Shown here one piece after another: positions 15,334 through 41,050 of a DNA stretch of 64,000 nt. This stretch comes from an uncultured Acidobacteriota bacterium (GTDB lineage: Bacteria > Acidobacteriota > Vicinamibacteria > Vicinamibacterales > UBA2999): assembly GCA_963802675.1 (NCBI GenBank), contig CAWDJL010000005.1, forward strand, positions 361,193 through 425,192, written 5' to 3'. The notes under the pieces are model-generated. The model saw only the letters and a list, made by a program, of their open reading frames with translations. It was not told where the DNA came from and did no database searches. Within the stretch, counting starts at the first letter, position 1. Each line of letters begins with the position of its first letter. A program made the translations under genes and the position numbers.

Positions 15334-18300
15334 TTAGGTGCCAATTTGCTGTAGCTGATCAAAACTGTCAGCGGCTTGCCGTTCGAAGGATTCCAGGGAC
15401 GCCGAAAGGAGCCGCGCGAGCCCCGCGGCGAACGGTTCTCCCATCATGGTGCTGTGCGATCCGGGCACTTGGTGGACGTCTACGCCACCCGCCGCCAACC
15501 AATCCCACACCGGATCGTAACGAGTAGGCCACGGCCCCAGCAGGGGCAGAGTGCGTGGCAGAAACAACGTGACCCGGCCGCGGAACGGCTTGGGTTGATA
15601 GTTGTGAATCGCGCGGTGATGCGTCCGCAGCATTGCCGCCTGGGAATCCGGGAAGCGCCACATCCCAATCTGGTCGCGCAAGTCGAGCGGCGCCGCGTCC
15701 TCTCGATCGCGGAGCGCCGAGGTCGCGAGACGCGACAAGTGGCGACTCTTGCTGCGGATCCGTCCCAACAACTCCCGCGGCCCGCTGACGATCGCGTCGT
15801 CTACAACCCAGAGAGGAACGTTTCTGATGAAGGCCCAGACCGCTTTCATGCCCCGAACGCACGGGGGCTCGACCTCGTAGTCGATCGCGGTTAGCAGGCC
15901 GACCTCGGCACCCTGGGTGTCGAGTAGCCGGCCCATCTCGAGCACGAGCAGCGCGGCCGAGCAGAACCCGCCCAAGTGATATGGGCCTCGAGGTTGAGCC
16001 TCTCGCAGCACCTTCACGTAATGCGCGGCCATCTCTTCCAGCGTGGCATCACTCTGAATTTGCGACCAATCGGCTGAAAAGCCGTAGACCGGCCGCTCGG
16101 CGGCGAGGTACTTCGAGAGCCGGGTGTAGCTGAAGACCTCTCCGCCCGTCCCGTGCACCCAATAAAAGGGAATGCCCGATCCGCCGTCCGAGATCTTCAC
16201 GAGGACGTTCTGTGTGATCCGTCCTCGGTTGGCAGGCTCAGTGGCAGGCTGAGCCAACTCGTCGATGCGCCGAGCCAGGGCCTCGAGGACACTGTGCTCG
16301 AACAACGCTCCGGGCGGGAGCGTCAACCCGAACTCCTCATGCACGCGATGCACCAGACGCATGACGAGTAGTGAGTGTCCTCCGAGCATGAAAAAGTCAT
16401 CGGCGTGGCTGACGGTTGACAGGCCCAGCAGGTCACACCAGATGCCGGCAAGCCGCGCTTCGGTTTCCGTTGCCGGTGACCGGCGATGTGAGTCAGCCCG
16501 CGCACGATCCGCGTCCGAAGGCGCCGGAAGGGCCTGTCGGTCGAGCTTGCCGTTCGACGTGAACGGCCATGTCTGCACGATGACGAAAGCGGAAGGTACT
16601 GCGTGCGCAGGTAAGAGCCGACCGAGATGAAGGCGCAATGACGCAGGCTCGAGTTTCTCGCCCGACAGATAGGCGACGAGATTCTGCGTGCCCGGAACGT
16701 CCTCGCGGAGCAGAACGACCGACTGTTCCACGCCCGGGTGCGCTTGCAGCACCGACTCGATCTCCCCGAGTTCGACTCGGAAGCCCCGGACCTTGACTTG
16801 ATTATCGAAACGCCCCTGAAACTCGATCGTGCCGTTGCTCAGCCAGCGAACACGATCCCCCGTCCGATACATCCGCGTGGCTCCGGTCGCTGAAAAGGGG
16901 TCGGGCGGGAAGCGCTCCGCGGTCAGATCCTCACGATTGAGATAGCCGCGCGCAACGCCATCGCCACCGATCCAAAGTTCGCCGGGTACGCCGATCGGGC
17001 ACGGGTTACCGTGACGGTCCAGCACGTAAGCTTTGACGTTCGCCAGGGGGCGACCCAGAGGCAGCCCTTCGCTCGTGAGTGTCGATGCCAGGTCGTCGAC
17101 CCGGTAGGTGAGGGCCCCAACCGTCGTTTCCGTCGGGCCGTAGTGATTCACGATCTTGCAGCTCGGCGCGAGTTGCTGCAGCTCGGCGATCCACTCCAAG
17201 CGGGCAGCTTCGCCGCCCAAAACCAGGCATCGTCGTGGCAGCACGGCACGGGCATGGTGCGCCTTGAGCAGAGCGGCCAGGTGGGTCGGGGTGATCTTCA
17301 GCACGTCCACCTGGTGTTGCGACAGGTACTCCGCAAACGCTCGACCGTCACTGGCCCGTTCGGGGCTCAGCACATGCAGGGTCCCGCCGGTCGCGAGGGC
17401 AAGGAAGATCGACGTGTTCCCGAGGTCGGCGGCGACAGTCGAGACCAGCGCATAACTGCTGTGCGCTGGCTGTCCGAGACTCTCGTTGACGCCCCAGGTG
17501 TAATTCAAAACGTTCCGATGCTCGATGACGACGCCCTTGGGGACACCGGTGGTTCCTGACGTGTACATGACGTAGGCGGCATCCGTCGACTCAACGGGAA
17601 TGTCCAGGTTGTCGCCCGACTGCCGCTCGATGACCGCCCCATCACGATCCCAGAAGACCAACGACGTGCCATCACAGGGCGCACCGGCAATGAGCTGCGA
17701 TTGTGTGATGGCAAGGCGAACACCGGCGTCCGCCATGAGGAATGCAAGACGCTCGACGGGATAACTGGGATCCAGCGGCACGTAGGCACAGCCAGCCTTG
17801 TGAATGGCGAGCAGGCTGATGATGAATTCGACGGAGCGGTTGAGACAGATCGCAATCACGTCCTTGGGCTTCGCGCCGCGACTCACCAGAACCCGGGCGA
17901 GGCGATTGGCCAGACCATTCAGTTCGCCGAAGGTGAGCTGGATGTCCTCGCCGACCAAGGCGAGCCGGGTGGGTTCGGCTACAGCCCAGTCCTCGATGAG
18001 TTGATGCAGGCAAGGCCGTGACCGAAATTCGCGCGCGTTCTCGTTGGGAGCCACGAGCACTGCATGCAGTTCGCCCGCGTCGAGCAGAGTGAGCTGGTCG
18101 AGATGGCGGTCTGGCTTTGTCACGGCGTCCGTGACGAGGGTCGCCAGCCGCGTGAGCAGGCGATTCGCCGTCGACGCTTCGAGGGCGTCGCGGTTATATT
18201 CGAGAACGAGGCCGATCCCGTCGGTCGAGACGGTGGCGTGGAACGTTATGTCGAGCTTTGTCGAAACGGTGGTGGGCAGGAGCGTCGTTGCTGTGAGGCC

Positions 18301-19401
18301 AGGGAAACGGACGCTGTCGCCAACCCCGATTATGTTGAACAGCACTTGATACAGCGGGTGCTGACTCAAGCTGCGCACGGGATTAACGGCTTCGACGACT
18401 TTCTCGAACGGGACGTGTTGATGGCCATGAGCTTCGAGCACCGTCTCTCGCACGCGCTTGATCAAGTCGTGGAACGAGAACGAGCCCTCGAACGTCGTAC
18501 GGAGGACCACGGTGTTGATGCAGAGCCCGACGACTCGCTCGAGCTCGAACCGATCACGGCCGCTGAACGGGCAACCGATCGCGATGTCGGATTGGCCCGT
18601 ATGGCGATAGAGCAATGCCTTGAGAGCGGCCAGGAGCACGATGAACGGCGTCGCTGCGTGCACGCGCGCCAGTTCACGCACTGCATCGGCAACGCCGGCA
18701 GGCAGCGACGCAGTGACGACATGGCCGGTGTGGCTCGAGGGCAGGTGCCGATGGTCGACGGGAAAGCGAAGGTCCGGGCTCCCCTCGAGCCGTGACTTCC
18801 AGAATGCGAGCCCAGACGCCAACACCTCACCGCGCAGGTGCTGGCGTTGCCAGGCCGTCAGATCGACGTACTCGATCGTCGGCGCCGGCAATGAGGCGTC
18901 GCTGCCGGTGCAGCGCGCTTCGTACAGCGTCGCCAACTCATCGAGGACGATGTTCAGCGACATTCCATCAACGATGATGTGGTGGCTCGTGATGAGCAGC
19001 ACATGGCGGGTGTCATGGACGCGGATGAGACGAACGCGAACGAGCGGACCGTGCGACAAATCGAACGCCGTGCCGGTCGCTTCGTCGACGAGCTTCTGAA
19101 CCTGCCGATCCGAATCCGGGGCTGCCGGATCGATCTCAATCGTCTCGATATCGATGGCGGCTTCTGGAGCGATGACTTGGACCGCCTCGCCGTCCTCCTC
19201 TCGGAACGTCGTCCGAAACGATTCGTGGCGCGCGAACACGTCCCTGATGGCCCCGACGAACGCGCCCAGGACCATCGCACCGTCGAGCTGGATTGCGAGC
19301 GTGACGTTGTAAGCGGTATCCCCCGGCTTCAGGCGATCGAGAAACCACAGGCGCTGCTGCGCAAACGAGGCGGGGTGGGCAAACTCGGCTAGCGTCGACA
19401 C
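15334..19401 (-). CDS. Non-ribosomal peptide synthetase, single termination module C-A-T-TE (A-domain code Asp-like)
   Basis: C: SFAQQRLWFLD, SHHIIVDGMS. A: AYVMYTSGTTGVPKGV, NHYGPTETT, YRTGDRVRW, GKLDRQALP. T: DDFFMLGGHSLLV. TE: IPFYWVHGTGGEVF, PYHLGGFCSAALLVLEM, VPGSHSTMM. GTG start. Confidence 0.95.
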   Translation of the reverse strand: MSTLAEFAHPASFAQQRLWFLDRLKPGDTAYNVTLAIQLDGAMVLGAFVGAIRDVFARHESFRTTFREEDGEAVQVIAPEAAIDIETIEIDPAAPDSDRQVQKLVDEATGTAFDLSHGPLVRVRLIRVHDTRHVLLITSHHIIVDGMSLNIVLDELATLYEARCTGSDASLPAPTIEYVDLTAWQRQHLRGEVLASGLAFWKSRLEGSPDLRFPVDHRHLPSSHTGHVVTASLPAGVADAVRELARVHAATPFIVLLAALKALLYRHTGQSDIAIGCPFSGRDRFELERVVGLCINTVVLRTTFEGSFSFHDLIKRVRETVLEAHGHQHVPFEKVVEAVNPVRSLSQHPLYQVLFNIIGVGDSVRFPGLTATTLLPTTVSTKLDITFHATVSTDGIGLVLEYNRDALEASTANRLLTRLATLVTDAVTKPDRHLDQLTLLDAGELHAVLVAPNENAREFRSRPCLHQLIEDWAVAEPTRLALVGEDIQLTFGELNGLANRLARVLVSRGAKPKDVIAICLNRSVEFIISLLAIHKAGCAYVPLDPSYPVERLAFLMADAGVRLAITQSQLIAGAPCDGTSLVFWDRDGAVIERQSGDNLDIPVESTDAAYVMYTSGTTGVPKGVVIEHRNVLNYTWGVNESLGQPAHSSYALVSTVAADLGNTSIFLALATGGTLHVLSPERASDGRAFAEYLSQHQVDVLKITPTHLAALLKAHHARAVLPRRCLVLGGEAARLEWIAELQQLAPSCKIVNHYGPTETTVGALTYRVDDLASTLTSEGLPLGRPLANVKAYVLDRHGNPCPIGVPGELWIGGDGVARGYLNREDLTAERFPPDPFSATGATRMYRTGDRVRWLSNGTIEFQGRFDNQVKVRGFRVELGEIESVLQAHPGVEQSVVLLREDVPGTQNLVAYLSGEKLEPASLRLHLGRLLPAHAVPSAFVIVQTWPFTSNGKLDRQALPAPSDADRARADSHRRSPATETEARLAGIWCDLLGLSTVSHADDFFMLGGHSLLVMRLVHRVHEEFGLTLPPGALFEHSVLEALARRIDELAQPATEPANRGRITQNVLVKISDGGSGIPFYWVHGTGGEVFSYTRLSKYLAAERPVYGFSADWSQIQSDATLEEMAAHYVKVLREAQPRGPYHLGGFCSAALLVLEMGRLLDTQGAEVGLLTAIDYEVEPPCVRGMKAVWAFIRNVPLWVVDDAIVSGPRELLGRIRSKSRHLSRLATSALRDREDAAPLDLRDQIGMWRFPDSQAAMLRTHHRAIHNYQPKPFRGRVTLFLPRTLPLLGPWPTRYDPVWDWLAAGGVDVHQVPGSHSTMMGEPFAAGLARLLSASLESFERQAADSFDQLQQIGT

Positions 19402-19510
19402 GTTATTTGAGTATAGACATTCGGCCCGTCAATCGGTTGAAGGCCGGGATTCACTGAGTAGCCGAACCGTGCAGCTCGGATGTACCTTGCAAAGTTCGTC
19501 ACCACAGGCG

Positions 19511-25546: not shown

Positions 25547-26187
25547 CGATCATAACCACCGACAACCGCCCTCGATAAGTCCACAGGACGTCATGCGTGA
25601 TTGTCCCATGGTTGAGCAAAACGATGGCCAAGCCGCGTTTGCGGTCCCGCGCGCGCCCATGCGTGGCCCACGATGCGGAAAATGTTGCGATTTCCGGTGC
25701 TCTCGAGGGCGCGGCCCCCGGCGCGAAGCGATGGGTCTTACTTTTGCAAACCGGGCGGACGCCATGCCGTAGACGGTTGAATGTTGAAGCCAGTGGTTGG
25801 CGCATTCGTGACTTTTATCTGCCGCACGGCCGACAATCGCGCTCCCCAGGCCCCCGGGCACGTGGGCTGCGCATATCGTCGGTCATCCGTTGCTTCGAGG
25901 CGTGCCACGGCCGTTTATCGACAGGTCGAACGTCTGCCTGAAAAGATCGTCGCGCCTGTGTCGCGCGCCAAGGCTGCGCCGGAACGTGTGCGTCTGTGCA
26001 GGCGAGCAGCATTTAGCGCAAGTTGCTTCTGGGCAGACCCGGAATGCCGTCTACTAACGCCACGTTCGGCGGCTCTCTTGCACTATCCGCTGTGCCAGTC
26101 GTCGGGTGTCAAAATGTCGAATGATGCGTGCACGTCCGTCGTCAAGTACACTCGAAGACACCGTCTCTGACCAGCAAAGGCTTACGA
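25547..26187. promoter_or_regulatory. 640-bp divergent non-coding region between the two biosynthetic operons (presumed bidirectional promoter/leader region)
   Basis: No protein-like ORF appears in any frame; all ORFs here are R/A/P-rich. The region is flanked by divergent start codons at 25546 (-) and ~26188 (+). No promoter motifs could be assigned by eye. Confidence 0.3.
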
Positions 26188-28089
26188 GTGAGCACGACCT
26201 CCGAATCCCTCGTCGAGGGTATCGCCATCATTGGCGCCGTGGGGCGTTTCCCCGGCGCGTCAGACCTCGGTCAGTTCTGGGCCAATCTCACGGCCGGGGT
26301 CGAATCCGTCAGCGTGTTGACCGACGCGCAGCTGACGGAGTCGGGGTTCGACCCGCAGCAGCTCCGCGCCGATCCTCGGTATGTTCCGGTCCGCGGCATC
26401 ATCGAGCGCGCCGAGTGGTTCGATGCCGCCTTCTTTGCGTTCACGCCGCGCGAAGCCCAGCTCACCGATCCGCAGCACCGCCTTTTTCTCGAAGCCGCAT
26501 GGGAAGCGCTTGAAAGCGCCGGCTGTGATCCCTCGCGCAGCAAGGGTGCGATCGGCGTGTTCGCGGGTTGCGGTAACAATACGTGGGCGCGTCGATACTT
26601 CGCGCGAGACCTCGACGATCTCGAGTCGGGGGAGTGGCTGGAGTCGGCGATCGGCAACGAGAAGGACTACGTCGCCACCCGTGTCGCCTACAAGCTCAAT
26701 CTGCGTGGCCCCGCCGTCAATGTCAACACCGCCTGTTCGACCTCACTCGTCGCAGTGTGCCAGGCGTGTCAGGCGCTGTGGACCTACCAATGCGATGTCG
26801 CGCTCGCCGGCGGCGTGAACGTGAGCTTCCCACAGGGCCGTGGCTACTACCACGACGATGAGGGCATCTCGTCGCCGGATGGCCACACCCGCGCGTTTGA
26901 CGTCGATGCGCGCGGCACCGTGTTCAGCAACGGCCTGGGCGTCGTGGTGCTCAAACGGCTCGGCGAGGCGCTCGAAGACGGCGACGAAATCCTTGCCGTC
27001 ATTCGAGGCGCGGCCATCAACAACGACGGCTCTGGGAAGGCAAGCTTTACGGCGCCGAGCGCCGACGGGCAAGCGGACGTCGTAGCGCTGGCGCAGGCGA
27101 TGGCCGGCGTATCACCGGACAGCGTGTCGTATGTCGAGACCCACGGCACGGCCACGCCGATTGGCGACGTGATTGAGCTGGCCGGGCTCACGAAGGCGTT
27201 TCGACTGGGAACGGCGAGGACGCAGTTCTGCGCCATCGGCTCGGTCAAGTCCAACATCGGTCACGTCGAGCACGCCGCTGGCGTGGCGGGCCTGATCAAG
27301 ACCGCGTTGGCGCTGCAGCATCGACAGATTCCCCCAAGCCTCCACTACACGCAGCCGAACCCGAAACTGCAGGTGTCGTCGAGTCCGTTCTTCGTCAACC
27401 ATTCGCTGCGCGAATGGAGCAATGTCGACTCGCCGCGTCGCGCCGGGGTCAGTTCCTTTGGCGTCGGCGGGACGAATGCCCATGTGGTTCTCGAGGAGGC
27501 GCCTCCTCGTCCGCCTTCGGGTCCGTCTCACCCCTGGCATCTGCTGCCGCTGTCGGCGAAAACCGGAGCCGCGCTGGATGGGGCATCGTCGGCGCTGGCC
27601 GACTTTCTGAGAAGTCATCCCGAAACGCAGCTTGCCGACGTTGCTTTCACGTTGCAGCGAGGACGATCGTCGTTCGACTTTCGTCGTGCGGTGGTTGCGA
27701 GATGTCCGAAGGAAGCCAGCGCAATCCTGAGTGGTGAGGTGCCGGGAAAGAGCATCGGGCCCGAACGCGCAGGCGATCGCGAGGTCATTTTCATGTTCCC
27801 CGGCGGCGGCGCGCAGTATTGCGGTGCCGCGCGAGGTTTGTATTCGCAGCTCCCCGAATTCAAACAGCAGGTTGACGCCTGCCTGGGCGCTATGGATGCG
27901 CGAATCGCCGCGGCAGTGAGCCGACTGATGCTGGTCGCGCCTGAAGAGGTCACCGTCACCGACCGCGAGCTCGCCGAACGTCCATCAGTCGGCCTGCCGA
28001 TGCTGTTCGCGATCGAGTTTGCCACGGCCCAGGTACTGGCTTGCGCGGGGCGTGAAGCCAGCTGCGCTCATCGGGCACAGCCTGGGTGA
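26188..28089 (+). CDS. Hybrid PKS-NRPS, fragment 1: KS plus N-terminal part of AT (frame lost inside the AT domain)
   Basis: IAIIGAVGRFPGA, DPQHRLFLE, VNTACSTSLVAV (Cys ~26734), ETHGTATPIGD, SNIGHVEHAAG = KS. VIFMFPGGGAQY..LFAIEFATAQVLA = AT start. Likely GTG start at 26188 (AAAGG 8 nt upstream); the ORF track starts at 26128. The listed frame ends 13 codons after a G4 run at 28047-28050. Confidence 0.9.
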   Translation: MSTTSESLVEGIAIIGAVGRFPGASDLGQFWANLTAGVESVSVLTDAQLTESGFDPQQLRADPRYVPVRGIIERAEWFDAAFFAFTPREAQLTDPQHRLFLEAAWEALESAGCDPSRSKGAIGVFAGCGNNTWARRYFARDLDDLESGEWLESAIGNEKDYVATRVAYKLNLRGPAVNVNTACSTSLVAVCQACQALWTYQCDVALAGGVNVSFPQGRGYYHDDEGISSPDGHTRAFDVDARGTVFSNGLGVVVLKRLGEALEDGDEILAVIRGAAINNDGSGKASFTAPSADGQADVVALAQAMAGVSPDSVSYVETHGTATPIGDVIELAGLTKAFRLGTARTQFCAIGSVKSNIGHVEHAAGVAGLIKTALALQHRQIPPSLHYTQPNPKLQVSSSPFFVNHSLREWSNVDSPRRAGVSSFGVGGTNAHVVLEEAPPRPPSGPSHPWHLLPLSAKTGAALDGASSALADFLRSHPETQLADVAFTLQRGRSSFDFRRAVVARCPKEASAILSGEVPGKSIGPERAGDREVIFMFPGGGAQYCGAARGLYSQLPEFKQQVDACLGAMDARIAAAVSRLMLVAPEEVTVTDRELAERPSVGLPMLFAIEFATAQVLACAGREASCAHRAQPG

Positions 28090-31000
28090 GTACGCGGCAG
28101 CGTGCCTGTCCGGCGTCATGGCGCTGAACGATGCGGTCGCACTGGTGCAGCTGCGTGGGCGCTTGTTCGATGAGCTTCCCGCCGGGGCGATGTTGAGTAT
28201 CGGCGCCGCCGCGGATCGCGTCACACCGTACCTCGAAGTTGGGCTTGACGTCGCGGTCATCAACGGACCGGCATCGTGTGTCGTCTCGGGACGAACGGAC
28301 CAAATCGGGGCGCTGGCCGAACGGCTCGAGCGCGACGGCCTCGAGACCGTGCGGCTTCATATTGCGGTCGCGGCGCACTCGTCGCTCGTTGAGCCGATTT
28401 TGCCGGCGTTTCGATCATTCGTCAGCGGATTGCGCTTGCATGCGCCGCGGATCCCCATCGTGTCGAACGTCACGGGAACCTGGTTGGGCGATTCGCAGGC
28501 CGTGAATCCCGACTACTGGGTCGATCACCTTCGACGCACGGTCCGGTTCTCGGAAGGCCTGCAGTCTCTCTTCACGAAGCCGAACGCTGCCTTCGTCGAG
28601 GTCGGCCCTGGTCGTGTGCTGTCCACGATCACCCGGGCACATCCCGACCGACCGTCGTCGGTGATCGCAATCGAGTCGATGAGGCACCCGCAGGATTCGC
28701 GCGACGACTATGAGGCGCTACTGGCCGCTCAGGCCCGATTGTGGGTCAACGGCGTGGCTGTGGACTGGGAACGAGAGTATCGCGACGAAACGCGACGCCG
28801 GGTTGCACTGCCAACGTATCCTTTTGAGCGACAGTTCTTCGGTCCTGTCGGGCGGACGACCGCGCTTGAGCCGAGTCAGATCATGCCGACAGCGGTCGTT
28901 CGGGGCCCTGCGTCGTTGCCGCAACCGCCGGGACTCTCCTTGACCGCGCCGGATCGCCGGGAACGGATCGCAAACAAACTCTGCGACATTCTTCACGAGC
29001 TGTCGGGGCTCGATCGGGCGACGCTGCTGGGAAGAGCCACCTTCATCGAACTGGGGTTCGATTCGCTCTCGTTGACCCAGGTGTCGCAGCTCGTGCTGCG
29101 TGAGTTCCGCGTGCGCGTCAAGTTCCGTCACCTGCTCGACACGCTGCCGACGGTACCTGCCTTGGCCGCGCACCTCGACGGTGAGATGCCACCTGAGGCG
29201 CCAGCGCCGTCGGTTGCTTCCTCGGAGGTGGTGTCCTCTACACTAACTGCGATGACACGGCTGCCCGACGCGGCGGCGATGCTATCAAAGACACCCAACC
29301 CTCCAGCGTTCGTTCAGGAGGTAATACGGCAGCAGCTTGCGTTGATGACCCAGCAGATCGCCGTCTTGCAGGGAGCAGCAACGGCGGCGCCGCCGAGTTC
29401 GCCTCCAGACCGTCCGACCGTTGCACTTACCCGTGTTCAGGATCGGCCGCTTGACGCCGGTGGCCTCGGGGCGGTCGCATCGCTGGGCCGGCTCAAGCCG
29501 GAGCTGTTGACGTCTCAGCAGCGCCGTTACCTGGCGGAGCTGATCGAGCGCTACACGTCCAGAACGGCGAAGTCCAAGGAGCTGACCCAACGCTTCCGGC
29601 CCCGCCACGCGGACCCGAGAACCGCATCCGGCTTCACTGGGCTGTGGAAGGAACTGGTTTATCCAATCGTGGTTTCGCGCTCCGGCGGCTCCCGGCTCTG
29701 GGACGTCGACGGCAACGAATACATCGACCTTCTCTGTGGATTCGGTCCGACGTTCCTCGGACACGGTCACGAGGTCATCGTCGAGGCCATCAATCAACAA
29801 CTGGCGCGCGGCTTTGAGCTTGGGCCGCAAACCCCCTTGGCGGGAGAGGTAGCCGACCTGTTCTGTGACTTGACCGGCCAGGAGCGTGTGAGCTTTGTCA
29901 ATACGGGCTCTGAAGCGGTGCAGGCGGCCTTGCGCCTTGCGCGAACCGTTACCGGCCGGACGAAAGTAGCGACGTTCACGCGGGATTATCACGGCAACTT
30001 CGACGAGATGTTGGTACGTGGGCTGCGGCGCGGCAACGAGCCGCGAACGGTTCCCTCCGCTCCTGGGATCCCGCAGCGGGCGGTCGACGACGTCATCGTG
30101 CTCGATTACGGCACGGAGGAGTCGCTGGAGTTCCTGAAGCGCTCGGCCCACGAGCTGGCCGCGATCGTGGTCGAACCCATACAGAGTCGACGACCGGAAT
30201 TCCAGCCGCGAGAGTTCCTGCAGGCACTCCGTGCCCTGACGCTGACGTCCGAGACTTTGTTGGTCTTCGACGAGGTCGTGACCGGACTCCGGATCGGTCC
30301 CGGCGGCGCCCAGGCACATTTCGGGATCCAGGCGGACCTGGCCACTTACGGCAAGGTGCTAGGCGGCGGCATGCCGATTGGAGCAGTGGCCGGACGTGCC
30401 GAGTTCATGGACACGTTCGACGGCGGCCAATGGCAATACGGCGATGAGTCGATGCCGGTCAAGCCGGTCACGTTCTTCGCCGGAACATTTGCGCGGCATC
30501 CCCTGGCAATGGCCGCTGCAAAGGCCACACTCACGTACCTCAAGGCAGGTGGACAATCGCTGTGGGACGGCCTGAACACGCGCAGCGACGGGCTGGCCGA
30601 CGCACTTGATGCAATCTGTCGGCGTGAGGGCATCCCGGTCCGGGTTCCGCACTTCCGTTCGATGATGTACCCGTATATCGAAGAAGGCCACGGGCTCGCA
30701 TACCTGCTTTTCTATGAGCTTCGGACGCGCGGCCTTTACTTGCACGAACCCTATCCGTGCTACCTGAATCTCGCGCACTCGGACGACGACATCGCCAGGG
30801 TAATCGCGGAGTTCGAGGCTGCCGTTTCGTGTCTGCGAGCCAATGGCGTGTTCGAGCGAATGCAATCGCCCGCAATGTTAGGCGATCCGGCGAGTGCAGG
30901 ACGCGGGCGTCCGGCGGCTCCTGCCGAGTCCGAGAGCAGTGCGCCGCCTTCTCTCGTCGTCAACGCAGCAGCGACTGAGGCCGCGACCGCGCCAGCGGAC

Positions 31001-34000
31001 CGTCGATCGGGCGAGGTATTCGTCTGTGACGCGTCCCTGATGCAGGAAGGGCTCTGGTTCATCGACCAGACGGTTCCGCTGCGGGCCACGTACAACATTC
31101 CAGTGGCGTTCGAGCTGCGCGGGCGCGTTGATTGGGTCGCATTTCAAAGGGCTGTTGACGACCTGGTGGAACGCCACGGGACGCTTCGCACGTCGTTTAC
31201 CGCGCGCGATGGTGCCCCACTCCAAGTCATCTCACCGGCCACGAAGGTTACGGTCGAGTACCGAGAAATCAGCGACAGCCCTACCGCGAGTGCCGAGGTT
31301 CACGCGTTGGTCCAGGCCGAAGCCGAGCAACCTTTCGATCTCGCGGTCGCGCCGTTGCTTCGAGTCAAGGCCTTTTCGCTATCAGACGTGCAGCATCTGG
31401 TCAGCTTCGTTTTCCACCACATCATCGTCGACGGGTGGTCGATCGGCGCCTTTTTCAAAGAGTTTGCTGCTGCGTATGCCGCGCGCGCCGCGGGCCGTCG
31501 CCCGGAGCTGCCGCCCGTCGCAGTCGACTATGCCGACTTTTCGATCTGGCAGCGCCAGCATCTGACCAACGAAGTGCAAGAGGCCCAACTCGATTACTGG
31601 CGCGAAACGCTGACCGGCGCGCCCGATTCCCTGGAGCTGCCGACGGATCGACCACGGCCGAAGCTCTCGTCCGGCGGCGGATGGACGGAGTGGTTCACCA
31701 TCGACGCCAAGACGACCACGATTCTCCGTGAGCTTTGCCGTCGAGAACAGACGACGATGTTCATGGCCGTCGTAAGTGTCATCGACGTTCTGCTCGCGCG
31801 CCACACGGGCGTGTACGACATCGTGGTCGGGTCGCCGATGGCAGGCCAGGTGGCCCAAGACGTCGAGAACACCCTTGGGTTCTTTGTCAACACCCTCGCG
31901 TTACGGACCAGGTTTTCGCCCGACGTCACCTTTCGCGAGCTGCTCGGTCGCACGAGAGCAACGACGCTCGGCGCGTATGAGAACGCAGACGTCCCGTTTT
32001 CTCAGGTGGTCGGAGCCGTCCGGCCAGAACGCGTGGCTGCCACCAATCCGCTGTTTCAGGTCATGTGCACTTTCGAAGCCGCGCCGGACGAGCTGCTGAG
32101 CCTGCCGGGCCTGGGGGTGCGGCCATACAACGTCAGCAGCGGGACTTCGAAGTTCGATCTTCTGTTCGATTTCCAGGAGCACCGGGAGGTCATCGAGGCA
32201 ACGCTCGAGTACAGCAGCGACCTTTTCGACGTCGGGGCGGGTCAGCGATGGGTTCAGCGATTCTTGACCTTGGCCGGAGCCGCCGCCCGCCAGCCCAATG
32301 TGCCTGTTTCAGCCTTGACGCTGATGCCGCCGGCCGAGCGCGACCAGATTCGTCAGTGGAGTGTCGCGGCTGCTGGAGAGGACTCCGGTCCCCCCCGAAC
32401 CTGGGCCTCGCTGCCCGACGCGTTCGACCAGCAGGCCAAGCAGACGCCCGAGGCTTCGGCGCTGGTCATGGGTGAGCGCGCGATGACCTACGGCGAGCTC
32501 AGGGAGCGTTCGAATCGAGTGGCACGGTATCTCGATCGGGTGGGTGTCGCCCGCGGCCATGCGGTCGGTTTGTGCATGGATCGATCGTTCGATCTGGTTG
32601 TGGCGCTGCTCGGGATTCTCAAGGCAGGTGCCGCCTACGTGCCGCTGGATCCCAACTACCCCGCGCAGCGTCTGACGCTGATGGCCGGTGACGCTGCCTT
32701 GAACGTCATTCTCGCCGACGGCACGGTCAAGACGGACTGGGCGGATCGAGCCGTTCGTGTCGTCCGCCTCGATGCCGACTGGCCGCTGATCAGCGGCAAA
32801 GAAGCCGAACCCCCGCAGCGGGACCTCACCGGCGCCGATCTCGCGTACATCATCTACACCTCGGGATCGACGGGGCAACCGAAAGGTGTGGCAATGTCAC
32901 ATGCGCCACTGCTGAACCTGCTGCAGTGGCAACTCGCCCGTTCCGCCGCTGGGCGTGGTGCGCGGACGCTGCAGTTTGCGCCCATCAGCTTCGATGTCTC
33001 GTTTCAGGAAATCTTCGCAACCCTCTGCAGCGGCGGGTCACTGGTCCTGATCGACGATGATGGTCGTCGAGATTCCCAGAGACTGCTGTCCACGCTGCGG
33101 GACCAGCATGTCAATCGACTCTTCCTGCCTTTCGTCGCGCTGCAGGCCTTGTGCGAAGCGGCGCAGTCGTCCGGCGTTATGCCGTGTGATCTGACCGAGG
33201 TGATCACGGCCGGTGAACAACTTCAGATCACGACGAGCGTCACGGCCTTCTTCGCATCGCTCGCGCGATGCTCGCTGGACAATCAATACGGGCCGACCGA
33301 AAGCCACGTCGTTACGGCTCACCGCCTCGAGGGCGCGCCGAAATCATGGCCACTGCTGCCGCCGATTGGCCGCCCAATCGCTAACGCTCGTGCATATGTG
33401 CTTGACGATCGTATGACGCCCGTCCCGATTGGCGTGCCGGGCGAGATCTACCTCGGCGGAGCCGTGTTGGCACAGGGCTACTACGGCAAGCCCGAGCTGA
33501 CCGCCGAAAGATTCTGTTTCAGCCCGTTCGAGCCAGGAATCCGGTTGTACCGGACCGGCGATGCCGCTCGTTGGCGGCCCGACGGCGCCCTGGAGTTCCT
33601 CGGCCGGTTGGATAGTCAGATCAAGATCAGAGGCCACCGGGTCGAGTTGAGTGAGATCGAAGCGATTCTCTGCACGGTACCCGGGATTGAGAGCGCCGTC
33701 GTCAGCGTCATCGGTAACGATGCCGTCACGCGCCGGCTGGTCGGATATGTGGTCTCACCGGCCGGCTCAGTCGATCCGGAAACCATTCGTCAGCATCTCC
33801 GGCTGAAACTTCCCGAGTACATGGTCCCGGCGATTTTCGTCGGGCTCGATCGCCTGCCACGGACGCCGAACGGCAAGATCGACCGCCGGTCGCTGCCTGC
33901 ACCACTTCCCAGTGTCCGCGAGCTCCCGCCGGTTGAGCGCCCGGCGGATCCAATCGAGGAACGCATAGCAACGATCTTCCGCGACGTGCTGAATGACGGG

Positions 34001-34255
34001 GAGGTCGGTCGTCACGACAACTTCTTCGATCGTGGCGGCCATTCACTCCAAGTGATGAGGGTACTGTCGCGAGTCCGGGACCTCGAGGGCGCCGAGGTGA
34101 CGGTTCAGGAATTCTTCGCAGCCCCGACTGTCGCCGGTCTCGCCGAGGCGACGCGCCGGATGGGGCGTTCGGTCCTGTCGGCGCCGATAACGCGTATCCA
34201 AAGGAGCCGATCAGACGGGGACCGCTCTCGGAATTTACCCTCCGCACGTGAATAG
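28019..34255 (+). CDS. Hybrid PKS-NRPS, fragment 2: AT (continued) - ACP - class III aminotransferase - C - A (Pro-like) - T
   Basis: GVKPAALIGHSLGEY (AT Ser), VAAHS specificity region (~28367). ACP: LGFDSLSLTQ (~29063). AMT: DLLCGFGPTFLGH, FVNTGSEA, VFDEVVTG, ATYGKVLGGGMPIG (Lys ~30353). C: LMQEGLWFID, FHHIIVDGWS (~31415). A: AYIIYTSGSTGQPKGV, NQYGPTESH, YRTGDAARW, NGKIDRRSLP. T: DNFFDRGGHSLQV. Continues fragment 1 if one G is removed at 28047-28050. Confidence 0.9.
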   Translation: MPRPRYWLARGVKPAALIGHSLGEYAAACLSGVMALNDAVALVQLRGRLFDELPAGAMLSIGAAADRVTPYLEVGLDVAVINGPASCVVSGRTDQIGALAERLERDGLETVRLHIAVAAHSSLVEPILPAFRSFVSGLRLHAPRIPIVSNVTGTWLGDSQAVNPDYWVDHLRRTVRFSEGLQSLFTKPNAAFVEVGPGRVLSTITRAHPDRPSSVIAIESMRHPQDSRDDYEALLAAQARLWVNGVAVDWEREYRDETRRRVALPTYPFERQFFGPVGRTTALEPSQIMPTAVVRGPASLPQPPGLSLTAPDRRERIANKLCDILHELSGLDRATLLGRATFIELGFDSLSLTQVSQLVLREFRVRVKFRHLLDTLPTVPALAAHLDGEMPPEAPAPSVASSEVVSSTLTAMTRLPDAAAMLSKTPNPPAFVQEVIRQQLALMTQQIAVLQGAATAAPPSSPPDRPTVALTRVQDRPLDAGGLGAVASLGRLKPELLTSQQRRYLAELIERYTSRTAKSKELTQRFRPRHADPRTASGFTGLWKELVYPIVVSRSGGSRLWDVDGNEYIDLLCGFGPTFLGHGHEVIVEAINQQLARGFELGPQTPLAGEVADLFCDLTGQERVSFVNTGSEAVQAALRLARTVTGRTKVATFTRDYHGNFDEMLVRGLRRGNEPRTVPSAPGIPQRAVDDVIVLDYGTEESLEFLKRSAHELAAIVVEPIQSRRPEFQPREFLQALRALTLTSETLLVFDEVVTGLRIGPGGAQAHFGIQADLATYGKVLGGGMPIGAVAGRAEFMDTFDGGQWQYGDESMPVKPVTFFAGTFARHPLAMAAAKATLTYLKAGGQSLWDGLNTRSDGLADALDAICRREGIPVRVPHFRSMMYPYIEEGHGLAYLLFYELRTRGLYLHEPYPCYLNLAHSDDDIARVIAEFEAAVSCLRANGVFERMQSPAMLGDPASAGRGRPAAPAESESSAPPSLVVNAAATEAATAPADRRSGEVFVCDASLMQEGLWFIDQTVPLRATYNIPVAFELRGRVDWVAFQRAVDDLVERHGTLRTSFTARDGAPLQVISPATKVTVEYREISDSPTASAEVHALVQAEAEQPFDLAVAPLLRVKAFSLSDVQHLVSFVFHHIIVDGWSIGAFFKEFAAAYAARAAGRRPELPPVAVDYADFSIWQRQHLTNEVQEAQLDYWRETLTGAPDSLELPTDRPRPKLSSGGGWTEWFTIDAKTTTILRELCRREQTTMFMAVVSVIDVLLARHTGVYDIVVGSPMAGQVAQDVENTLGFFVNTLALRTRFSPDVTFRELLGRTRATTLGAYENADVPFSQVVGAVRPERVAATNPLFQVMCTFEAAPDELLSLPGLGVRPYNVSSGTSKFDLLFDFQEHREVIEATLEYSSDLFDVGAGQRWVQRFLTLAGAAARQPNVPVSALTLMPPAERDQIRQWSVAAAGEDSGPPRTWASLPDAFDQQAKQTPEASALVMGERAMTYGELRERSNRVARYLDRVGVARGHAVGLCMDRSFDLVVALLGILKAGAAYVPLDPNYPAQRLTLMAGDAALNVILADGTVKTDWADRAVRVVRLDADWPLISGKEAEPPQRDLTGADLAYIIYTSGSTGQPKGVAMSHAPLLNLLQWQLARSAAGRGARTLQFAPISFDVSFQEIFATLCSGGSLVLIDDDGRRDSQRLLSTLRDQHVNRLFLPFVALQALCEAAQSSGVMPCDLTEVITAGEQLQITTSVTAFFASLARCSLDNQYGPTESHVVTAHRLEGAPKSWPLLPPIGRPIANARAYVLDDRMTPVPIGVPGEIYLGGAVLAQGYYGKPELTAERFCFSPFEPGIRLYRTGDAARWRPDGALEFLGRLDSQIKIRGHRVELSEIEAILCTVPGIESAVVSVIGNDAVTRRLVGYVVSPAGSVDPETIRQHLRLKLPEYMVPAIFVGLDRLPRTPNGKIDRRSLPAPLPSVRELPPVERPADPIEERIATIFRDVLNDGEVGRHDNFFDRGGHSLQVMRVLSRVRDLEGAEVTVQEFFAAPTVAGLAEATRRMGRSVLSAPITRIQRSRSDGDRSRNLPSARE

Positions 34256-34382: not shown

Positions 34383-37300
34383 ATGGCGAGCAAGGAGATT
34401 GCGGCGGCGCTAGAGGGAGTCGTAGAAGCGCCATGCTCGCTTCCGCAACGCCGGCTGTGGTTGTCGCACACCCTCTACGGTCAGCGTTCGTCGTACAACA
34501 TCCCCTTTATATATCGACTCGAAGGTGCCCTCGACGTCGGCAGGCTCCAACGCAGCTTGGATCGCGTGCTGGAGCGCCACGAAGTACTGCGCACGTTCTT
34601 TCGCCTGGAGAATCGAGACGTCGTCCAGGTCATCCAGCCGAAACTCACGGTCCCGATCACAGAGAAGGACCTCAACCAGATGCCGGTGGGCGAAGCAGTC
34701 AAGTCAGCCCTCGCGGCGGCGGCCATCGATGCCGCCATTCCGTTCGATCTCACCACGACGCCGCTCTTGCGAGCCACGCTTTATCGCCTGGGTGACCGCG
34801 ACCACGTGCTCGCATTCTGCGTTCATCACATCATTTTCGACGGCTGGTCCGAAGGCATCTTGTGGCGAGAACTCGCGGCGTTCTACGACGCCGACAGCGA
34901 GGCCTGCGGACTGGAGGAACTGGCGATTCAGTACGCGGATTTCGCGATCTGGCAGCGTGAGCACAGGGCTGGTGACGCCGCCGAGTCAAGCCATGCCTAC
35001 TGGAAGCGACAGCTCGCAGATGCGCCTGCTGTGCTGAATCTGCCGCTTGACGCGCCCCGGCCGGTCGAACCGTCGCATCGCGGTCGTCTGGAGGTCATGG
35101 ACGTTCCAGGGCCGGTAGTGCATGCGCTGGTCGCACTGGGCCGGAGGTATGGAGCCACGCTGCACATGATGCTGCTGGCGGCCTATAGCGTGGTCCTCCA
35201 TCGCTACTCGGGCGATCCGGAGGTCGTGATCGGCACGGCCTTGGCAGGGCGGACGCGTTCCGAGATCGAATCGTTGATCGGCTTCTTCATCAATACGGTG
35301 GCGGTACGCGCAGACCTTCGGGGCGAGCCAACCTTTGTCGATCTGCTCGAGCGCATCAAGCGCGTGATGCTCGAATCTCACGCCAATCAGGACGTGCCGT
35401 TCGAGGCTGTCGTTGAAATGTTGCACCCGGATCGCACGACCGGTCAGATTCCGCTGTTCCAGACGATGTTCGTGCTGCAAAACCATGAGGGCGCGCCCGT
35501 GTCCCTCGGAGAAGCGACGCTCTCGCCGCTCGAAGTGCACAACGGCAGCTCGAAGTGCGATTTGCTGTTGAGCATTCGCGCGGTGCTCGACGGCAGCAGC
35601 GGCATGGCCTGCTCGCTCGAGTACGACACGGACCTCTTCCGGCCGGCGACCGCCGTCAGACTGCTCGAAAGCTTCCGGTCCGTCCTGGTCGGCGTGATCG
35701 AGCGACCCAACCAGCGGATCGCGACACTCCCAGTCGTGTCGCCGAGCGAACGGGAGCTGTTGACCAGTTGGGGAAGGACGCCCGCGGAGTCTCCGCGCGA
35801 CTCGACGATTCACCGCGAATTTGCGGCGGCGGCTGCGCGGACGCCCCATGCGATTGCGGTGAGCGGCGAATCCGAATCGCTCACTTACGCGCAGCTCGAG
35901 ACGCGCGCCCATCAGCTGGCAGTGGTTCTGCGGCGCGAAGGGGTGCAGCGGGGAGATCTGGTGGCCATGTGCCTCGAGCGCGGGCTAACCCCGATCGTCG
36001 CCCAACTGGCGGTGCTGAAAACCGGTGGCGCGTATGTGCCACTGGACACGTCGTATCCTACGTCGCGGATTTCCTGCATCATCGAGGATGCCCAACCCCG
36101 GGTCGTGCTCGCGGAGCGTCGGACTGCCGACGTCGTTCCACCGTGTGACGCGCGCGTCATCCTCATCGACCAGGCTCTCACGCCCGTGCTCGCTTCCCCT
36201 GAGCCCTGGCCCGATGAAGGAAACGGCGAGGACCTCGCTTATGTAATGTACACGTCCGGGTCGACGGGGCGGCCCAACGGCGTCCGCGTTCCACATCGTG
36301 GTGTCTTGCGGCTCGTGCTGGGTTCGACCTACGTGGACTGGCGCAAGGCCACCACGTTCCTACAGATGGCCCCGCTGTCATTCGACGCCTCGACGTTTGA
36401 AGTCTGGGGTCCGCTGCTCCACGGCGCGCGGCTCGTGGTGTTTCCGGAACAGGTGCCGACAATACCCCGACTCGAGCAGGTTCTTCGGGAGGGAAAGGTC
36501 GACTGCTTGTGGCTGACGGCGGCACTCTTCAACTTCGTGATCGATGAGCGCCCCGAGTGCCTGGCGAGTGTCAGGCAGCTAATTGTCGGCGGTGAGGCGC
36601 TTTCGGTTCCGCATGTCATCCGATCGCAAGCCCGCCTGCCGTTCACGAAGTTGATCAACGGATATGGCCCCACGGAGTGCACCACGTTTGCGTGCTGCTA
36701 TCCGATCCCGCCGATCCCCGCCTCGGCGACGTCGATCCCGATCGGTCGTCCGATCGCGAACACGAGCGTACTGGTCCTTGATACCCACCGGCAAGTTGTC
36801 CCGGTCGGCGTGGTCGGCGAGCTTTACATCGGCGGCGATGGAGTAGCACTCGGGTATCACGACCGATCGGAGTTGACCGCGGCGCGGTTCGTTCCCGATC
36901 CGTCGGGCGACACCGGCGAGCGATGGTATCGCACCGGCGATCTGGTTCGTTGGTTGCCGGAGGGCGTCCTCGACTTCGTAGGCCGAATCGACTCACAGGT
37001 CAAGATGCGCGGCTTTCGCGTTGAACCAGGCGAGATCGAGGCCGTTTGTCGCCGCCATCACGCCGTCCGTGACGTCGTCGTGCTGCTGCACAAGCGCACG
37101 CCAACCGATGCACGCTTGGTGGCCTATGTCGCCACCGTCGACCACACTGCGGCCAGCGCTGCCGACATTCGTCAGTTCCTCGAGCAGCACTTGCCTCGTC
37201 AACTCATGCCAAGTGAGATCGTGCTTTGCGACGAGTTGCCGCTCACGCCGAATGGCAAGGTCGATCGCACCGCACTCCTCGCTCGGTCAGTCGCACCCGC

Positions 37301-38450
37301 GCCGACCGGTACGGCAACCGCCGACCCTTCGGCGGCGCTTTCGGCAGTCGAGCAGAAATTGCTCGCCATCTGGCTTGATGTCTTGCGCGTGAAGTCACTG
37401 GGCGTCAACGATGACTTCTTCGCGTTGGGGGGACATTCGCTGACCGCTGTGCAGATGTTTTCGTCCATTCAGGCCGCGTTCGACCGGAGTCTGCCTTTCA
37501 GCGCTCTGCTTCAGCATTCGACCGTGGCACGACTGGCCAGGCTTCTAGAGCCGCCGGTCGCTTCGGACGTTCGACCGTCTTCTTTGGTCCCGCTCCGATC
37601 GAGTGGCTCGTTGCCACCGTTGTTCCTGCTTCCTGGCATCGGAAGCGAAGTGTGGACGTTTCTCGAACTGGTCAAGGAGCTCGACGCCAAACAGCCAGTG
37701 TTTGGCATCTTGCCGACCGGCGCGAAGGGTGCTGGGCGCACGCTTTCGATCAGCGAAATGGCGACGGGTTTCGCCGCTGACATCGAATCAGCGTACCCCG
37801 GTGGTCCGTACATCCTCGGCGGCTATTGTTCAGGAGCGGTGACGGCGTTCGAGGTCGCGCGGCAGTTGCGGCTGCGAGGCAAGCCGGTGCAAATGCTGGT
37901 CGTGTTCGATTACTGGTTGAAAGAGCAACGCTGTGGCCTTCTCGCCTACGTTCGCAACGCCGCGCTCTGGTTCGCCGACGACTTCATGCATACGAGCGTC
38001 TCGAACAACCTTGGCAGGGCGAAGAGCAAGGCTCGGTTGCTGCGAGCCCGCGGGAGAGCCCTCATGGGGCGGGTGGGCCCACCGCCCGACGTGCGCGACG
38101 TGCTCGGGATGTGGCGCTATCCGGACTACGAGGTCCGTCGGCTCGAAGACTTCCTGAAGGCGATGCACGCGTACCGTTTCACCGGCTATGACGGTGCGAT
38201 TCACGTGTTCCGCGCGCGGACACGAAGCCTTGGACGCTCGCAGCCTTCGGCCGACATGGGATGGAGCGAAATCGCCGAGGGTCCGCTGACGATAGAGACG
38301 GTCCAGGGTGCGCACGACAGCATGTTCATGCAGCCGTTCGTGCGCAGTCTGGCCACGCGGCTTGACCGCGCAATTCGGGCTGCGGAACAAACCGATCGGC
38401 GAAGGGACTCGACTCCGACGGAGACGCCGGTCGTCGGCCACCTCGTTTGA
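34383..38450 (+). CDS. Non-ribosomal peptide synthetase, single termination module C-A-T-TE (A-domain code Val)
   Basis: C: LPQRRLWLSH, VHHIIFDGWS. A: AYVMYTSGSTGRPNGV, NGYGPTECT, YRTGDLVRW, NGKVDRTAL. T: DDFFALGGHSLTA. TE: LFLLPGIGSEVW, PYILGGYCSGAVTAFEVA (Cys codon 37827-37829), VQGAHDSMF. Confidence 0.95.
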   Translation: MASKEIAAALEGVVEAPCSLPQRRLWLSHTLYGQRSSYNIPFIYRLEGALDVGRLQRSLDRVLERHEVLRTFFRLENRDVVQVIQPKLTVPITEKDLNQMPVGEAVKSALAAAAIDAAIPFDLTTTPLLRATLYRLGDRDHVLAFCVHHIIFDGWSEGILWRELAAFYDADSEACGLEELAIQYADFAIWQREHRAGDAAESSHAYWKRQLADAPAVLNLPLDAPRPVEPSHRGRLEVMDVPGPVVHALVALGRRYGATLHMMLLAAYSVVLHRYSGDPEVVIGTALAGRTRSEIESLIGFFINTVAVRADLRGEPTFVDLLERIKRVMLESHANQDVPFEAVVEMLHPDRTTGQIPLFQTMFVLQNHEGAPVSLGEATLSPLEVHNGSSKCDLLLSIRAVLDGSSGMACSLEYDTDLFRPATAVRLLESFRSVLVGVIERPNQRIATLPVVSPSERELLTSWGRTPAESPRDSTIHREFAAAAARTPHAIAVSGESESLTYAQLETRAHQLAVVLRREGVQRGDLVAMCLERGLTPIVAQLAVLKTGGAYVPLDTSYPTSRISCIIEDAQPRVVLAERRTADVVPPCDARVILIDQALTPVLASPEPWPDEGNGEDLAYVMYTSGSTGRPNGVRVPHRGVLRLVLGSTYVDWRKATTFLQMAPLSFDASTFEVWGPLLHGARLVVFPEQVPTIPRLEQVLREGKVDCLWLTAALFNFVIDERPECLASVRQLIVGGEALSVPHVIRSQARLPFTKLINGYGPTECTTFACCYPIPPIPASATSIPIGRPIANTSVLVLDTHRQVVPVGVVGELYIGGDGVALGYHDRSELTAARFVPDPSGDTGERWYRTGDLVRWLPEGVLDFVGRIDSQVKMRGFRVEPGEIEAVCRRHHAVRDVVVLLHKRTPTDARLVAYVATVDHTAASAADIRQFLEQHLPRQLMPSEIVLCDELPLTPNGKVDRTALLARSVAPAPTGTATADPSAALSAVEQKLLAIWLDVLRVKSLGVNDDFFALGGHSLTAVQMFSSIQAAFDRSLPFSALLQHSTVARLARLLEPPVASDVRPSSLVPLRSSGSLPPLFLLPGIGSEVWTFLELVKELDAKQPVFGILPTGAKGAGRTLSISEMATGFAADIESAYPGGPYILGGYCSGAVTAFEVARQLRLRGKPVQMLVVFDYWLKEQRCGLLAYVRNAALWFADDFMHTSVSNNLGRAKSKARLLRARGRALMGRVGPPPDVRDVLGMWRYPDYEVRRLEDFLKAMHAYRFTGYDGAIHVFRARTRSLGRSQPSADMGWSEIAEGPLTIETVQGAHDSMFMQPFVRSLATRLDRAIRAAEQTDRRRDSTPTETPVVGHLV

Positions 38451-41032: not shown

Positions 41033-41050
41033 GAGGGTTGCTCCGTTCGG

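Follow-up and report, generated by a model that had tools for sequence, protein, structure and literature searches.

At positions 15334–38450 of the 64,000-nt stretch analysed here (the window), from an uncultured Acidobacteriota bacterium, lie the core genes of a hybrid non-ribosomal peptide synthetase–polyketide synthase (NRPS–PKS) cluster, arranged as two divergent transcription units (Table 1). The minus-strand unit comprises a protein in which FkbM and FkbH domains are joined to carrier (T1), epimerization (E), condensation (C2) and second carrier (T2) domains, followed by a module of condensation (C), adenylation (A), carrier (T) and thioesterase (TE) domains. The plus-strand unit consists of a module of ketosynthase (KS), acyltransferase (AT), acyl carrier protein (ACP) and aminotransferase (AMT) domains extended by C-A-T, and of a second C-A-T-TE protein. 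The locus is a genuine orphan cluster of an uncultured soil Acidobacteriota species, and is part of a small family of FkbH-primed NRPS–PKS clusters seen in one uncultured Acidobacteriota metagenome-assembled genome (MAG) and in metagenome contigs.

Domains were assigned by Pfam and NCBIfam scans of the larger open reading frames (ORFs), complemented by six-frame motif searches, and A-domain (Stachelhaus) codes were read by alignment to a GrsA-PheA fragment. The locus had previously been described in a first-pass annotation made from the sequence alone; its ORF positions and sizes (2011, 1355 and 1355 aa) were recovered, its hand-called domains agree with the scans in all cluster genes, and its A-domain codes (Asp, Pro-like and Val) match those re-derived here. 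Also upheld are its spacers of 109 bp between the minus-strand pair and 127 bp between the plus-strand pair, and its divergent region of about 640 bp, given that the KS gene starts at GTG 26188. This divergent spacer contains no repeats and no Rfam family; promoter and terminator scans performed no better than on shuffled sequence, and promoter-like matches in the spacer are not enriched. In agreement with the first description, neither the scans of the larger ORFs nor the six-frame motif searches revealed an MbtH, phosphopantetheinyl transferase or stand-alone TE gene in the window, nor a fatty acyl-AMP ligase (FAAL).

Table 1 Features of the core cluster and of its left-hand neighbours in the window
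Feature	Position	Strand	Basis or remark
C-A(Asp)-T-TE, 1355 aa, TE nucleophile Cys (GGFCSAA)	15334..19401	-	Pfam, code, alignment
FkbM-FkbH-T1-E-C2-T2 protein, 2011 aa	19511..25546	-	Pfam, NCBIfam, motifs
T2 carrier, GGQSL, A domain absent	~19586-19840	-	
C2 domain	~19925-21187	-	
E domain (TIGR01720)	~21227-22591	-	
T1 carrier, GGDSI	~22631-22819	-	
FkbH domain (TIGR01686)	~23111-24076	-	
FkbM domain (PF05050/TIGR01444)	~24530-25114	-	
Divergent intergenic region	25547..26187	.	641 bp given KS start GTG 26188
First ORF: KS and first ~85 AT positions	26188..28089 (open frame 26128-28089)	+	Pfam/NCBIfam, motifs
Extra G in AT, CAGG vs CAG	28031..28033 (~28032)	+	Sister comparison
Second ORF: AT remainder, ACP, class-III aminotransferase (AMT), C-A(Pro-like)-T	28019..34255	+	
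C-A(Val)-T-TE, 1355 aa, TE nucleophile Cys (GGYCSG)	34383..38450	+	Pfam, code, alignment
58-aa two-helix membrane protein (…GEPVWMLLFGVALLVLARAARRHVPGRRGQPG)	14978..15151	-	64-93% identical in L008, L010, L012, same position
GT4 glycosyltransferase, TIGR03087 (stp1)	13722..14921	-	334.9 bits vs cut-off 316.65
RmlA	12835-13725	-	Pfam; dTDP-6-deoxyhexose supply
RmlC	12261-12833	-	Pfam; dTDP-6-deoxyhexose supply
Further glycan genes, same-strand run (~11 kb)	933..12202	-	Pfam, NCBIfam

Domain organization of the core cluster

At the start of the minus-strand unit is the FkbM–FkbH loading region. The FkbH domain scores 296.7 bits against TIGR01686 (curated cut-off 146.65) and retains the DxDxT motif of the HAD fold (VDCDNTLW, residues 497–503). 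Directly upstream of T1 is the segment SCRVLGKGVE, invariant in alignment A1, whose Cys would, as in OzmB, be the site of the glyceryl-S-enzyme intermediate. A role for FkbH of the methoxymalonyl type was rejected, as FkbI- and FkbK-type dehydrogenases are absent and the FkbH domain shares its polypeptide with an NRPS carrier. A separate set of proteins (P0051–P0120), of about 1300 aa with the order FkbM-FkbH-ACP-dehydratase, is about 40% identical to the loading part; this family is large, widespread and seemingly uncharacterised, with many members in Gemmatimonadota, Verrucomicrobiota and Acidobacteriota MAGs.

Following T1 is an E domain with intact motifs (HHLVIDGVS and FNYLGQFD), and the GGDSI of T1 is a signature typical of carriers serving E domains. 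The E domain is nearest to ordinary E domains that follow A-T (about 44% identity), and C2 groups both with C domains located after E and with the C domain placed directly after FkbH-T in the E-less P0021, P0023 and P0024. The order FkbH-T-E is found in other proteins as well (for example, P0027, P0038 and P0057). The E domain may serve to epimerise the glyceryl unit or may be a relic of domain shuffling. As the first-pass annotation had pointed out, the last C-T pair is devoid of an A domain: C2-T2 leaves no room for one, and an A-less C-T is kept in P0003–P0005, P0019, P0021 and P0023. The same six proteins conserve a basic C-terminal tail after T2, RAKRQSAALARHRLRLK.

On the plus strand, the KS has intact catalytic residues (the Cys of TACSTS, HGTAT and NIGH), the AT and ACP carry GHSLG and GFDSL, and the aminotransferase matches PF00202 at 1.8e-55. 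Apart from a frameshift in the AT, the module order KS-AT-ACP-class-III aminotransferase agrees with the definition of an iturin-type AMT module; in the order KS-AT-ACP-aminotransferase-C-A-T, a β-keto thioester is converted to a β-amino acyl unit. The specificity motif of the AT (28300–28420) is VAAH, shared with L009, L010 and L012; as it differs from both HAFH (malonyl) and YASH (methylmalonyl), the extender unit cannot be predicted with confidence. The A domain in the second ORF has the Pro-like code DVQFIAQVVK.

The segment from KS to T had been read as a single gene. In the window it is divided into two ORFs by a +1 frameshift in the AT, just 5′ of the active-site GHSLG, where the window reads GCCCAGGTACTGG and L001, L009 and L010 read GCCCAGTACTGG. 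These three sister sequences are without the extra G, restoring the in-frame reading ATAQYWLARGVKPAALIGHSLGEY, and uninterrupted orthologues have 2698 and 2721 aa. Were the frameshift genuine, the PKS–NRPS gene would be a pseudogene and the cluster inactivated in this strain, a view with which the absence of the extra G from the three sisters and its position in a GG dinucleotide, with no long homopolymer, are in keeping. We consider this rather unlikely, as the window has at least three more frameshifts in unrelated genes (one in a cytidylyltransferase at ~9225 and two in an ADOP permease at ~43300–43550), the remaining NRPS/PKS frames (~21 kb) are all open with catalytic motifs kept, and the 156 indels that separate the sister MAG L001 from the window suggest error-prone reads. 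Owing to these frameshifts in unrelated genes, the break in the AT is judged to be probably an assembly indel, and the pattern suggests that indel errors are scattered across the assembly.

The other two interrupted genes were delineated as follows. In the glucose-1-phosphate cytidylyltransferase gene (9150–9300, minus strand; TIGR02623 at 275.7 bits, just below the cut-off), the frame breaks at ~9225 after ‘...GWINGGFF’ and resumes in another frame, to ‘...APWKVW’. The N-terminus of an ADOP/MacB-type permease (MERLLQDLRFALRLLWKDRGFTL...) is cut from the ORF at 43571–45760 by two frameshifts (43240–43600, plus strand).

Each transcription unit ends in a C-A-T-TE protein, both with intact HHxxxDG in the C domain, A-domain core motifs including the A10 Lys, and GGxS in the T domain; three C domains of the cluster carry HHxxxDG. 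The A-domain code is DLTKVGHVGK (Asp) on the minus strand and DAFWIGGTFK (Val) on the plus strand. The two proteins are 34% identical, which bears out the divergence noted at first, and are no nearer to each other than either is to the internal C-A-T; they are distant paralogues with separate histories. Their equal length is coincidental, since orthologues of the minus-strand protein were called at 1355–1461 aa. The Asp code and GGFCSAA are identical in the orthologues of L009, L010, L011 and L012, despite overall identity falling to 47%; the minus-strand gene is the stand-alone Asp module that the family conserves. For the Val module no close relative was found outside the window’s own group, and L012 has a TE straight after C-A-T; the Val C-A-T-TE extends the main line. 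The notion of symmetrical operons closed by twin genes was therefore abandoned.

Neither TE is of the canonical serine type: in place of the GxSxG serine are GFCSA and GYCSG, with the Cys aligning to the nucleophilic Ser of 7crn and EntF and to the Cys of AB3403. Cysteine TEs have been described as uncommon, with ObiF, SulM and AB3403 structurally characterised (PMC6668435, PMC11298585). An exhaustive search retrieved 229 representative clusters at E ≤ 1e-30 for this TE clade. Among the 150 best relatives the nucleophile is Cys in 77 and Ser in 68, and nearly all of the nearest have Cys; the Cys nucleophile is typical of this clade and not peculiar to the locus.

Gene order in relatives and a candidate assembly line

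The sister MAG L001, labelled uncultured Acidobacteriota bacterium, has 96.9% nucleotide identity to the window over 27 kb, in agreement with the acidobacterial host proposed at first. In a family-alignment scan of 185,579 species-representative GTDB genomes the complete gene set was present in L001 only. Among 5.8 billion proteins, the FkbM-FkbH-T-E-C-T protein has five full-length homologues, all metagenomic (93, 91, 65, 63 and 49% identical), and relatives with the full architecture come only from metagenomes and the one MAG. Searches with single parts were less productive. The homologue search with the Asp module was swamped by bimodular NRPSs and surfaced two close orthologues, and that with the KS alone returned only short generic fragments of type I PKSs, which say nothing about the domains or genes in front of the nearest KSs. 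The exact sequence of the Val module had no match on record, and a metagenome scan with it gave no close relative (best 45% identity) and no additional family member, and hence no synteny with which to place the right-hand boundary of the cluster.

Three arrangements of the NRPS and PKS genes are observed. The layout of the window is shared by L009 and L010, and the head-to-head pairing of FkbH gene and KS gene is kept in L007, L009 and L010. In L007 (63% identity) a glycosyltransferase gene comes directly after the FkbH gene, with no C-A-T-TE; the FkbH-gene side of L008 (65% identity) is as in L007, the C-A-T-TE being absent there. In L011 and L012, whose FkbH proteins are 37–40% identical to that of the window, FkbM-FkbH-T-C-T overlaps or abuts a KS-AT-ACP-AMT-C gene on the same strand, followed by A-T and then TE; the Asp-module orthologue (47% identical) is divergent, beside the glycosyltransferase gene stp1 and RmlA. 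L013 has FkbH-T-C-A-T-E-C-T and, after 15 bp, KS-AT-ACP-AMT-C-A. Head-to-head and tandem clusters alike retain the short basic tail that follows T2. From the gene order of L011, L012 and L013, an A-less (E)-C-T directly before KS-AT-ACP-AMT is a recurrent cassette. Unrelated environmental clusters have complete A-T modules directly before KS-AT-AMT-C.

Upstream in L013 (1–9900) are an asparagine-synthase-like gene, an 88-aa ACP, an NAD-synthase-family gene and an acyl-CoA ligase resembling the exosortase-A-associated TIGR03098, with a score below the cut-off. A large GT4 gene and a cupin/JmjC gene follow the NRPS/PKS genes of the same relative.

The lack of an adenylating or FAAL loader for the KS had been listed as an oddity. 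ORF scans indeed found no AMP ligase and no free ACP in the window; the oddity itself disappears once the KS is fed by a preceding C-T, as the gene order of the relatives suggests. Because L011, L012 and L013 place FkbH-...-C-T right before KS-AT-ACP-AMT, the N-terminal KS most likely receives its substrate from the A-less T2 of the FkbH protein. Feeding of the KS by T2 favours one rearranged line over two products, and we take it as the most likely reading, at about even odds, that both divergent transcription units encode a single FkbH-primed assembly line. Of the product options put forward at first, relatives’ gene order thus favours the convergent single line and disfavours two short products.

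In such a line, FkbH would load D-glycerate from 1,3-bisphosphoglycerate onto T1 and FkbM would O-methylate it, as expected from their families. The E and C2 domains would join the glycerate unit to a residue on T2, itself necessarily loaded in trans. For this residue the best candidate is Asp, supplied by the conserved C-A(Asp)-T-TE(Cys) module, because T2 is A-less and no other amino-acid-activating unit is invariant in the family. Asp could be transferred directly, or the Cys-TE could pass it from carrier to carrier as a transacylase, much as LgnA and SyrC do. From T2 the acyl-aminoacyl chain would pass to the N-terminal KS, as the gene order of relatives supports, one malonyl-type unit would be added, and the AMT would turn the β-keto group into a β-amine. 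Extension by C-A(Pro-like)-T and then C-A(Val)-T would precede release by the terminal Cys-TE. The products of the adjacent stp1, RmlA and RmlC may attach a 6-deoxyhexose, or tie the product to a surface glycan.

Several observations weigh against this model. In the window the T2 gene precedes the Asp C-A-T-TE and not the KS, an order equally collinear for a separate short product, and of the two TE domains a linear line would need only one. The E domain looks redundant, as FkbH already gives a D-configured unit, and E-less relatives employ the same C type as C2. The C domain of the Asp module is intact (HHIIVDG) yet would have no role if the module only loads T2. Pairwise carrier similarity places T2 no closer to the T domain of the Asp module than to other T domains, and so does not point to the A domain that would load it. 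Unlike the LgnA and SyrC systems, the window has no stand-alone α/β-hydrolase or A-T protein, the TEs all being fused to C-A-T. The KS proteins are without a recognisable N-terminal docking domain; docking helices had been proposed for examination at the four protein termini, where no docking extension was recognised, on the KS protein or elsewhere, and the conserved basic tail after T2 was found.

With two TE domains and two divergent units, the locus could instead specify two independent short products: an (O-methyl)glyceroyl-X-Asp from the minus strand and a β-aminoacyl-Pro-Val from the plus strand, the KS being primed from the acyl-CoA or acyl-ACP pool. The FkbH protein is followed collinearly by C-A(Asp)-T-TE in the window, L009 and L010, and iturin-type AMT modules normally take fatty acyl chains. 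We regard two products as unlikely: in L007 and L008 the FkbH gene is not followed by a C-A-T-TE, the KS gene is placed directly after C-T in L011, L012 and L013, neither a FAAL nor an ACP loader was found in the window, and the A-less T2 would still require a donor.

As the C domain of the Asp module is unexplained by the single line, a branched line was also retained. The plus-strand Cys-TE would move β-aminoacyl-Pro-Val onto T2, C2 would acylate its free β-amine with methylglycerate, and the Asp module would add Asp, with release by its own TE. Every domain would then have a use, the two Cys-TEs, the A-less T2 and the Asp module’s C domain among them, in agreement with the minus-strand gene order of the window, and carrier-to-carrier transfer by α/β-hydrolases is documented (PMC8748450). 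This route is nevertheless improbable, leaving the priming of the KS unexplained and being disfavoured by the order of FkbH gene then KS gene in L011, L012 and L013; we also found no earlier case in which a cis type I TE shifts a whole peptide onto another T domain.

Neighbouring glycan genes and the cluster boundary

Immediately to the left of the Asp module are genes for a 58-aa membrane protein, the glycosyltransferase stp1, RmlA and RmlC. Orthologues of stp1 adjoin NRPS genes in L007, L008, L009, L010, L011 and L012 (343 bits in L012); RmlA and RmlC are beside stp1 in L008, L009, L010 and L011, and RmlA also in L012. Through the three internal arrangements of the cluster, stp1 and RmlA stay adjacent to and co-oriented with the NRPS genes. 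Wherever it was detected, the 58-aa protein is encoded between the NRPS genes and the glycosyltransferase (a tblastn search did not detect it in L011). Its end recalls a PEP-CTERM anchor, with EP, a hydrophobic helix and an Arg-rich stretch, and PF07589 gives about 12 bits in two orthologues, below threshold. L008 also has an XrtA-associated FemAB-family gene (TIGR03019, 383.8 bits). The ORFs scanned in the window include no exosortase gene, and a literature search found no paper tying NRPS/PKS products to the XrtA/PEP-CTERM system.

Because orthologues of the Asp module adjoin stp1, RmlA and RmlC, the cluster probably extends to the left of 15334, and the left boundary first drawn at this position cuts off these conserved neighbours and the 58-aa gene. 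The run further to the left contains two GT2 genes, the glucose-1-phosphate cytidylyltransferase, a methyltransferase, epimerases/dehydratases, a second RmlC, an amine oxidase, a further GT2, a GT4 and Wzy, and could possibly belong to the cluster as well. The two RmlC genes of the glycan locus (6726–7313 and 12261–12833) are paralogous, and the locus combines dTDP-type (RmlA) and CDP-type (cytidylyltransferase) sugar activation.

For a functional link between NRPS and glycan genes, as glycosylation of the product or as a surface glycoconjugate, the chances are roughly balanced. Weighing against it, the window shows no exosortase gene, and RmlA and stp1 are 90% and 77% identical to their L011 counterparts and the NRPS genes 37–58%, so that the adjacency could be inherited synteny. 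The cluster would in that case end at 15334 and its product would be a non-glycosylated small peptide–polyketide. The far better conservation of the sugar genes between window and L011 is as for a housekeeping locus, and a weak terminator-like hairpin lies right after the Asp module (15298–15285). Adjacency by descent only is thus a real possibility, if somewhat short of even. Against it, adjacency and co-orientation have survived three internal arrangements of the NRPS genes, and wherever they were detected, stp1 and the gene for the 58-aa protein lie between and not further out.

A more specific role, which we hold to be quite unlikely, is that the product is a building block of an XrtA/PEP-CTERM surface system: a methylglyceroyl β-amino peptide glycosylated by stp1, rather than a diffusible metabolite, with the 58-aa protein part of the same module. 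Were this so, the peptide could be a primer, cap or anchor of the exopolysaccharide, or could even provide proteins processed by exosortase with their unknown amine acceptor. The place that the cluster keeps beside XrtA/PEP-CTERM glycan genes also suggests that some soil-bacterial ‘secondary metabolite’ lines may build cell-surface glycoconjugates, which, if true, would bear on the unsolved chemistry of the exosortase system.

Further genes of the window lie to the right of the cluster. A class-I SAM methyltransferase is encoded at 39004–39696. Between the cluster and the permease (39815–43040) are three ORFs of 405, 339 and 335 aa with high GC3 that match neither a Pfam nor an NCBIfam family. 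A run of aerotolerance-operon type at 48311–53613 (MoxR AAA ATPase, DUF58/VWA, BatA and DUF4175) is preceded, on the opposite strand, by two genes for HtrA-like Trypsin-PDZ proteases (45912–48254), and three tandem genes for TldD/PmbA-family metallopeptidases (558, 451 and 526 aa) are located at 55285–59965.

Comparison with known systems

Layout novelty was judged from literature searches and from the annotation names in homologue lists, and in agreement with the first-pass annotation no characterised cluster with the same layout was found in either. Few natural products of Acidobacteriota have been characterised, which makes any complete cluster of the phylum a useful target. Three points of enzymology are raised by the present one: how an A-less C-T that feeds a KS-AMT module obtains its substrate, what function a cysteine thioesterase has when fused to a stand-alone Asp module, and whether an α-oxy acid delivered by FkbH is a substrate of the E domain.

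The loading region resembles that of aeruginosin-type proteins such as DysB, SuoB and OciA-like proteins, which likewise have an N-terminal FkbM-type methyltransferase with FkbH and T. Loading of 2-O-methylglycerate by MT-FkbH-T has been proposed for DysB (dysinosin) and SuoB (suomilide) (PMC6520454, PMC8609519). Cyanobacterial homologues (P0007–P0020) are 37–42% identical over 48–60% of the protein. In modules of the DysB/SuoB type C-A-T-E comes next, and a sulfotransferase domain is borne by the majority of the cyanobacterial homologues listed, unlike the window; these modules are without an A-less C-T, an E domain directly after the FkbH carrier, or a KS-AT-ACP-AMT partner, all three of which the window has.

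The cystomanamide pathway (ctm) of Cystobacter fuscus, a lipopeptide pathway, also combines a 3-amino acyl unit made by an AMT with FkbH-derived glyceric acid and glycosylation (PMC9581180). It differs from the window in its internal FkbH (C-FkbH-T), in having no FkbM and in its single terminal TE. An NRPS of C. fuscus, P0032, has the order C-FkbH-T-C-A-T-E, which is not an orthologous order, with 35% identity across 43% of the query.

The KS-AT-ACP-aminotransferase-C-A-T order of the plus strand is that of MycA (iturin/mycosubtilin) and of McyE (microcystin). MycA has its own acyl-ligase–ACP loader and McyE follows PKS modules, whereas the KS of the window is N-terminal and in relatives is preceded by an NRPS C-T. 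The A-less C-T didomain, represented by C2-T2 in the window, is shared with systems in which it is loaded by an α/β-hydrolase together with a separate A-T protein, namely LgnA/LgnB/LgnD (legonmycin) and SyrB1/SyrC/SyrE (syringomycin) (PMC8748450). There the hydrolase is free-standing and the donor a plain A-T; the candidate in the window would be a TE fused to a complete C-A-T.

For the terminal modules, a counterpart is AB3403 of Acinetobacter baumannii, a C-A-T-TE with a GxCxG Cys as in the window (E = 2.4e-14) and a product that is uncharacterised. It is the only Cys-type TE among the listed matches of solved structure, and has been noted as the sole further TE of known structure whose nucleophile is a Cys (PMC11298585). 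ObiF and SulM make a β-lactone and a β-lactam from β-hydroxy and β-amino residues; the termini of the window, Asp and Val, do not suggest such chemistry, and β-lactone or β-lactam formation by its Cys-TEs was deemed unlikely on these grounds. With XrtA/PEP-CTERM loci the window has the marker stp1 in common, to which L008 adds a FemAB-type marker; unlike those systems, no exosortase gene was found in the window.

None of the compared systems is an orthologous cluster, with identities of 35–42% over parts of proteins and different module orders. The mechanistic quirks of the cluster are real and each of its elements has a published precedent: in the loading of DysB and SuoB, in cystomanamide, in the iturin-type AMT and in the trans-loading by LgnA and SyrC.

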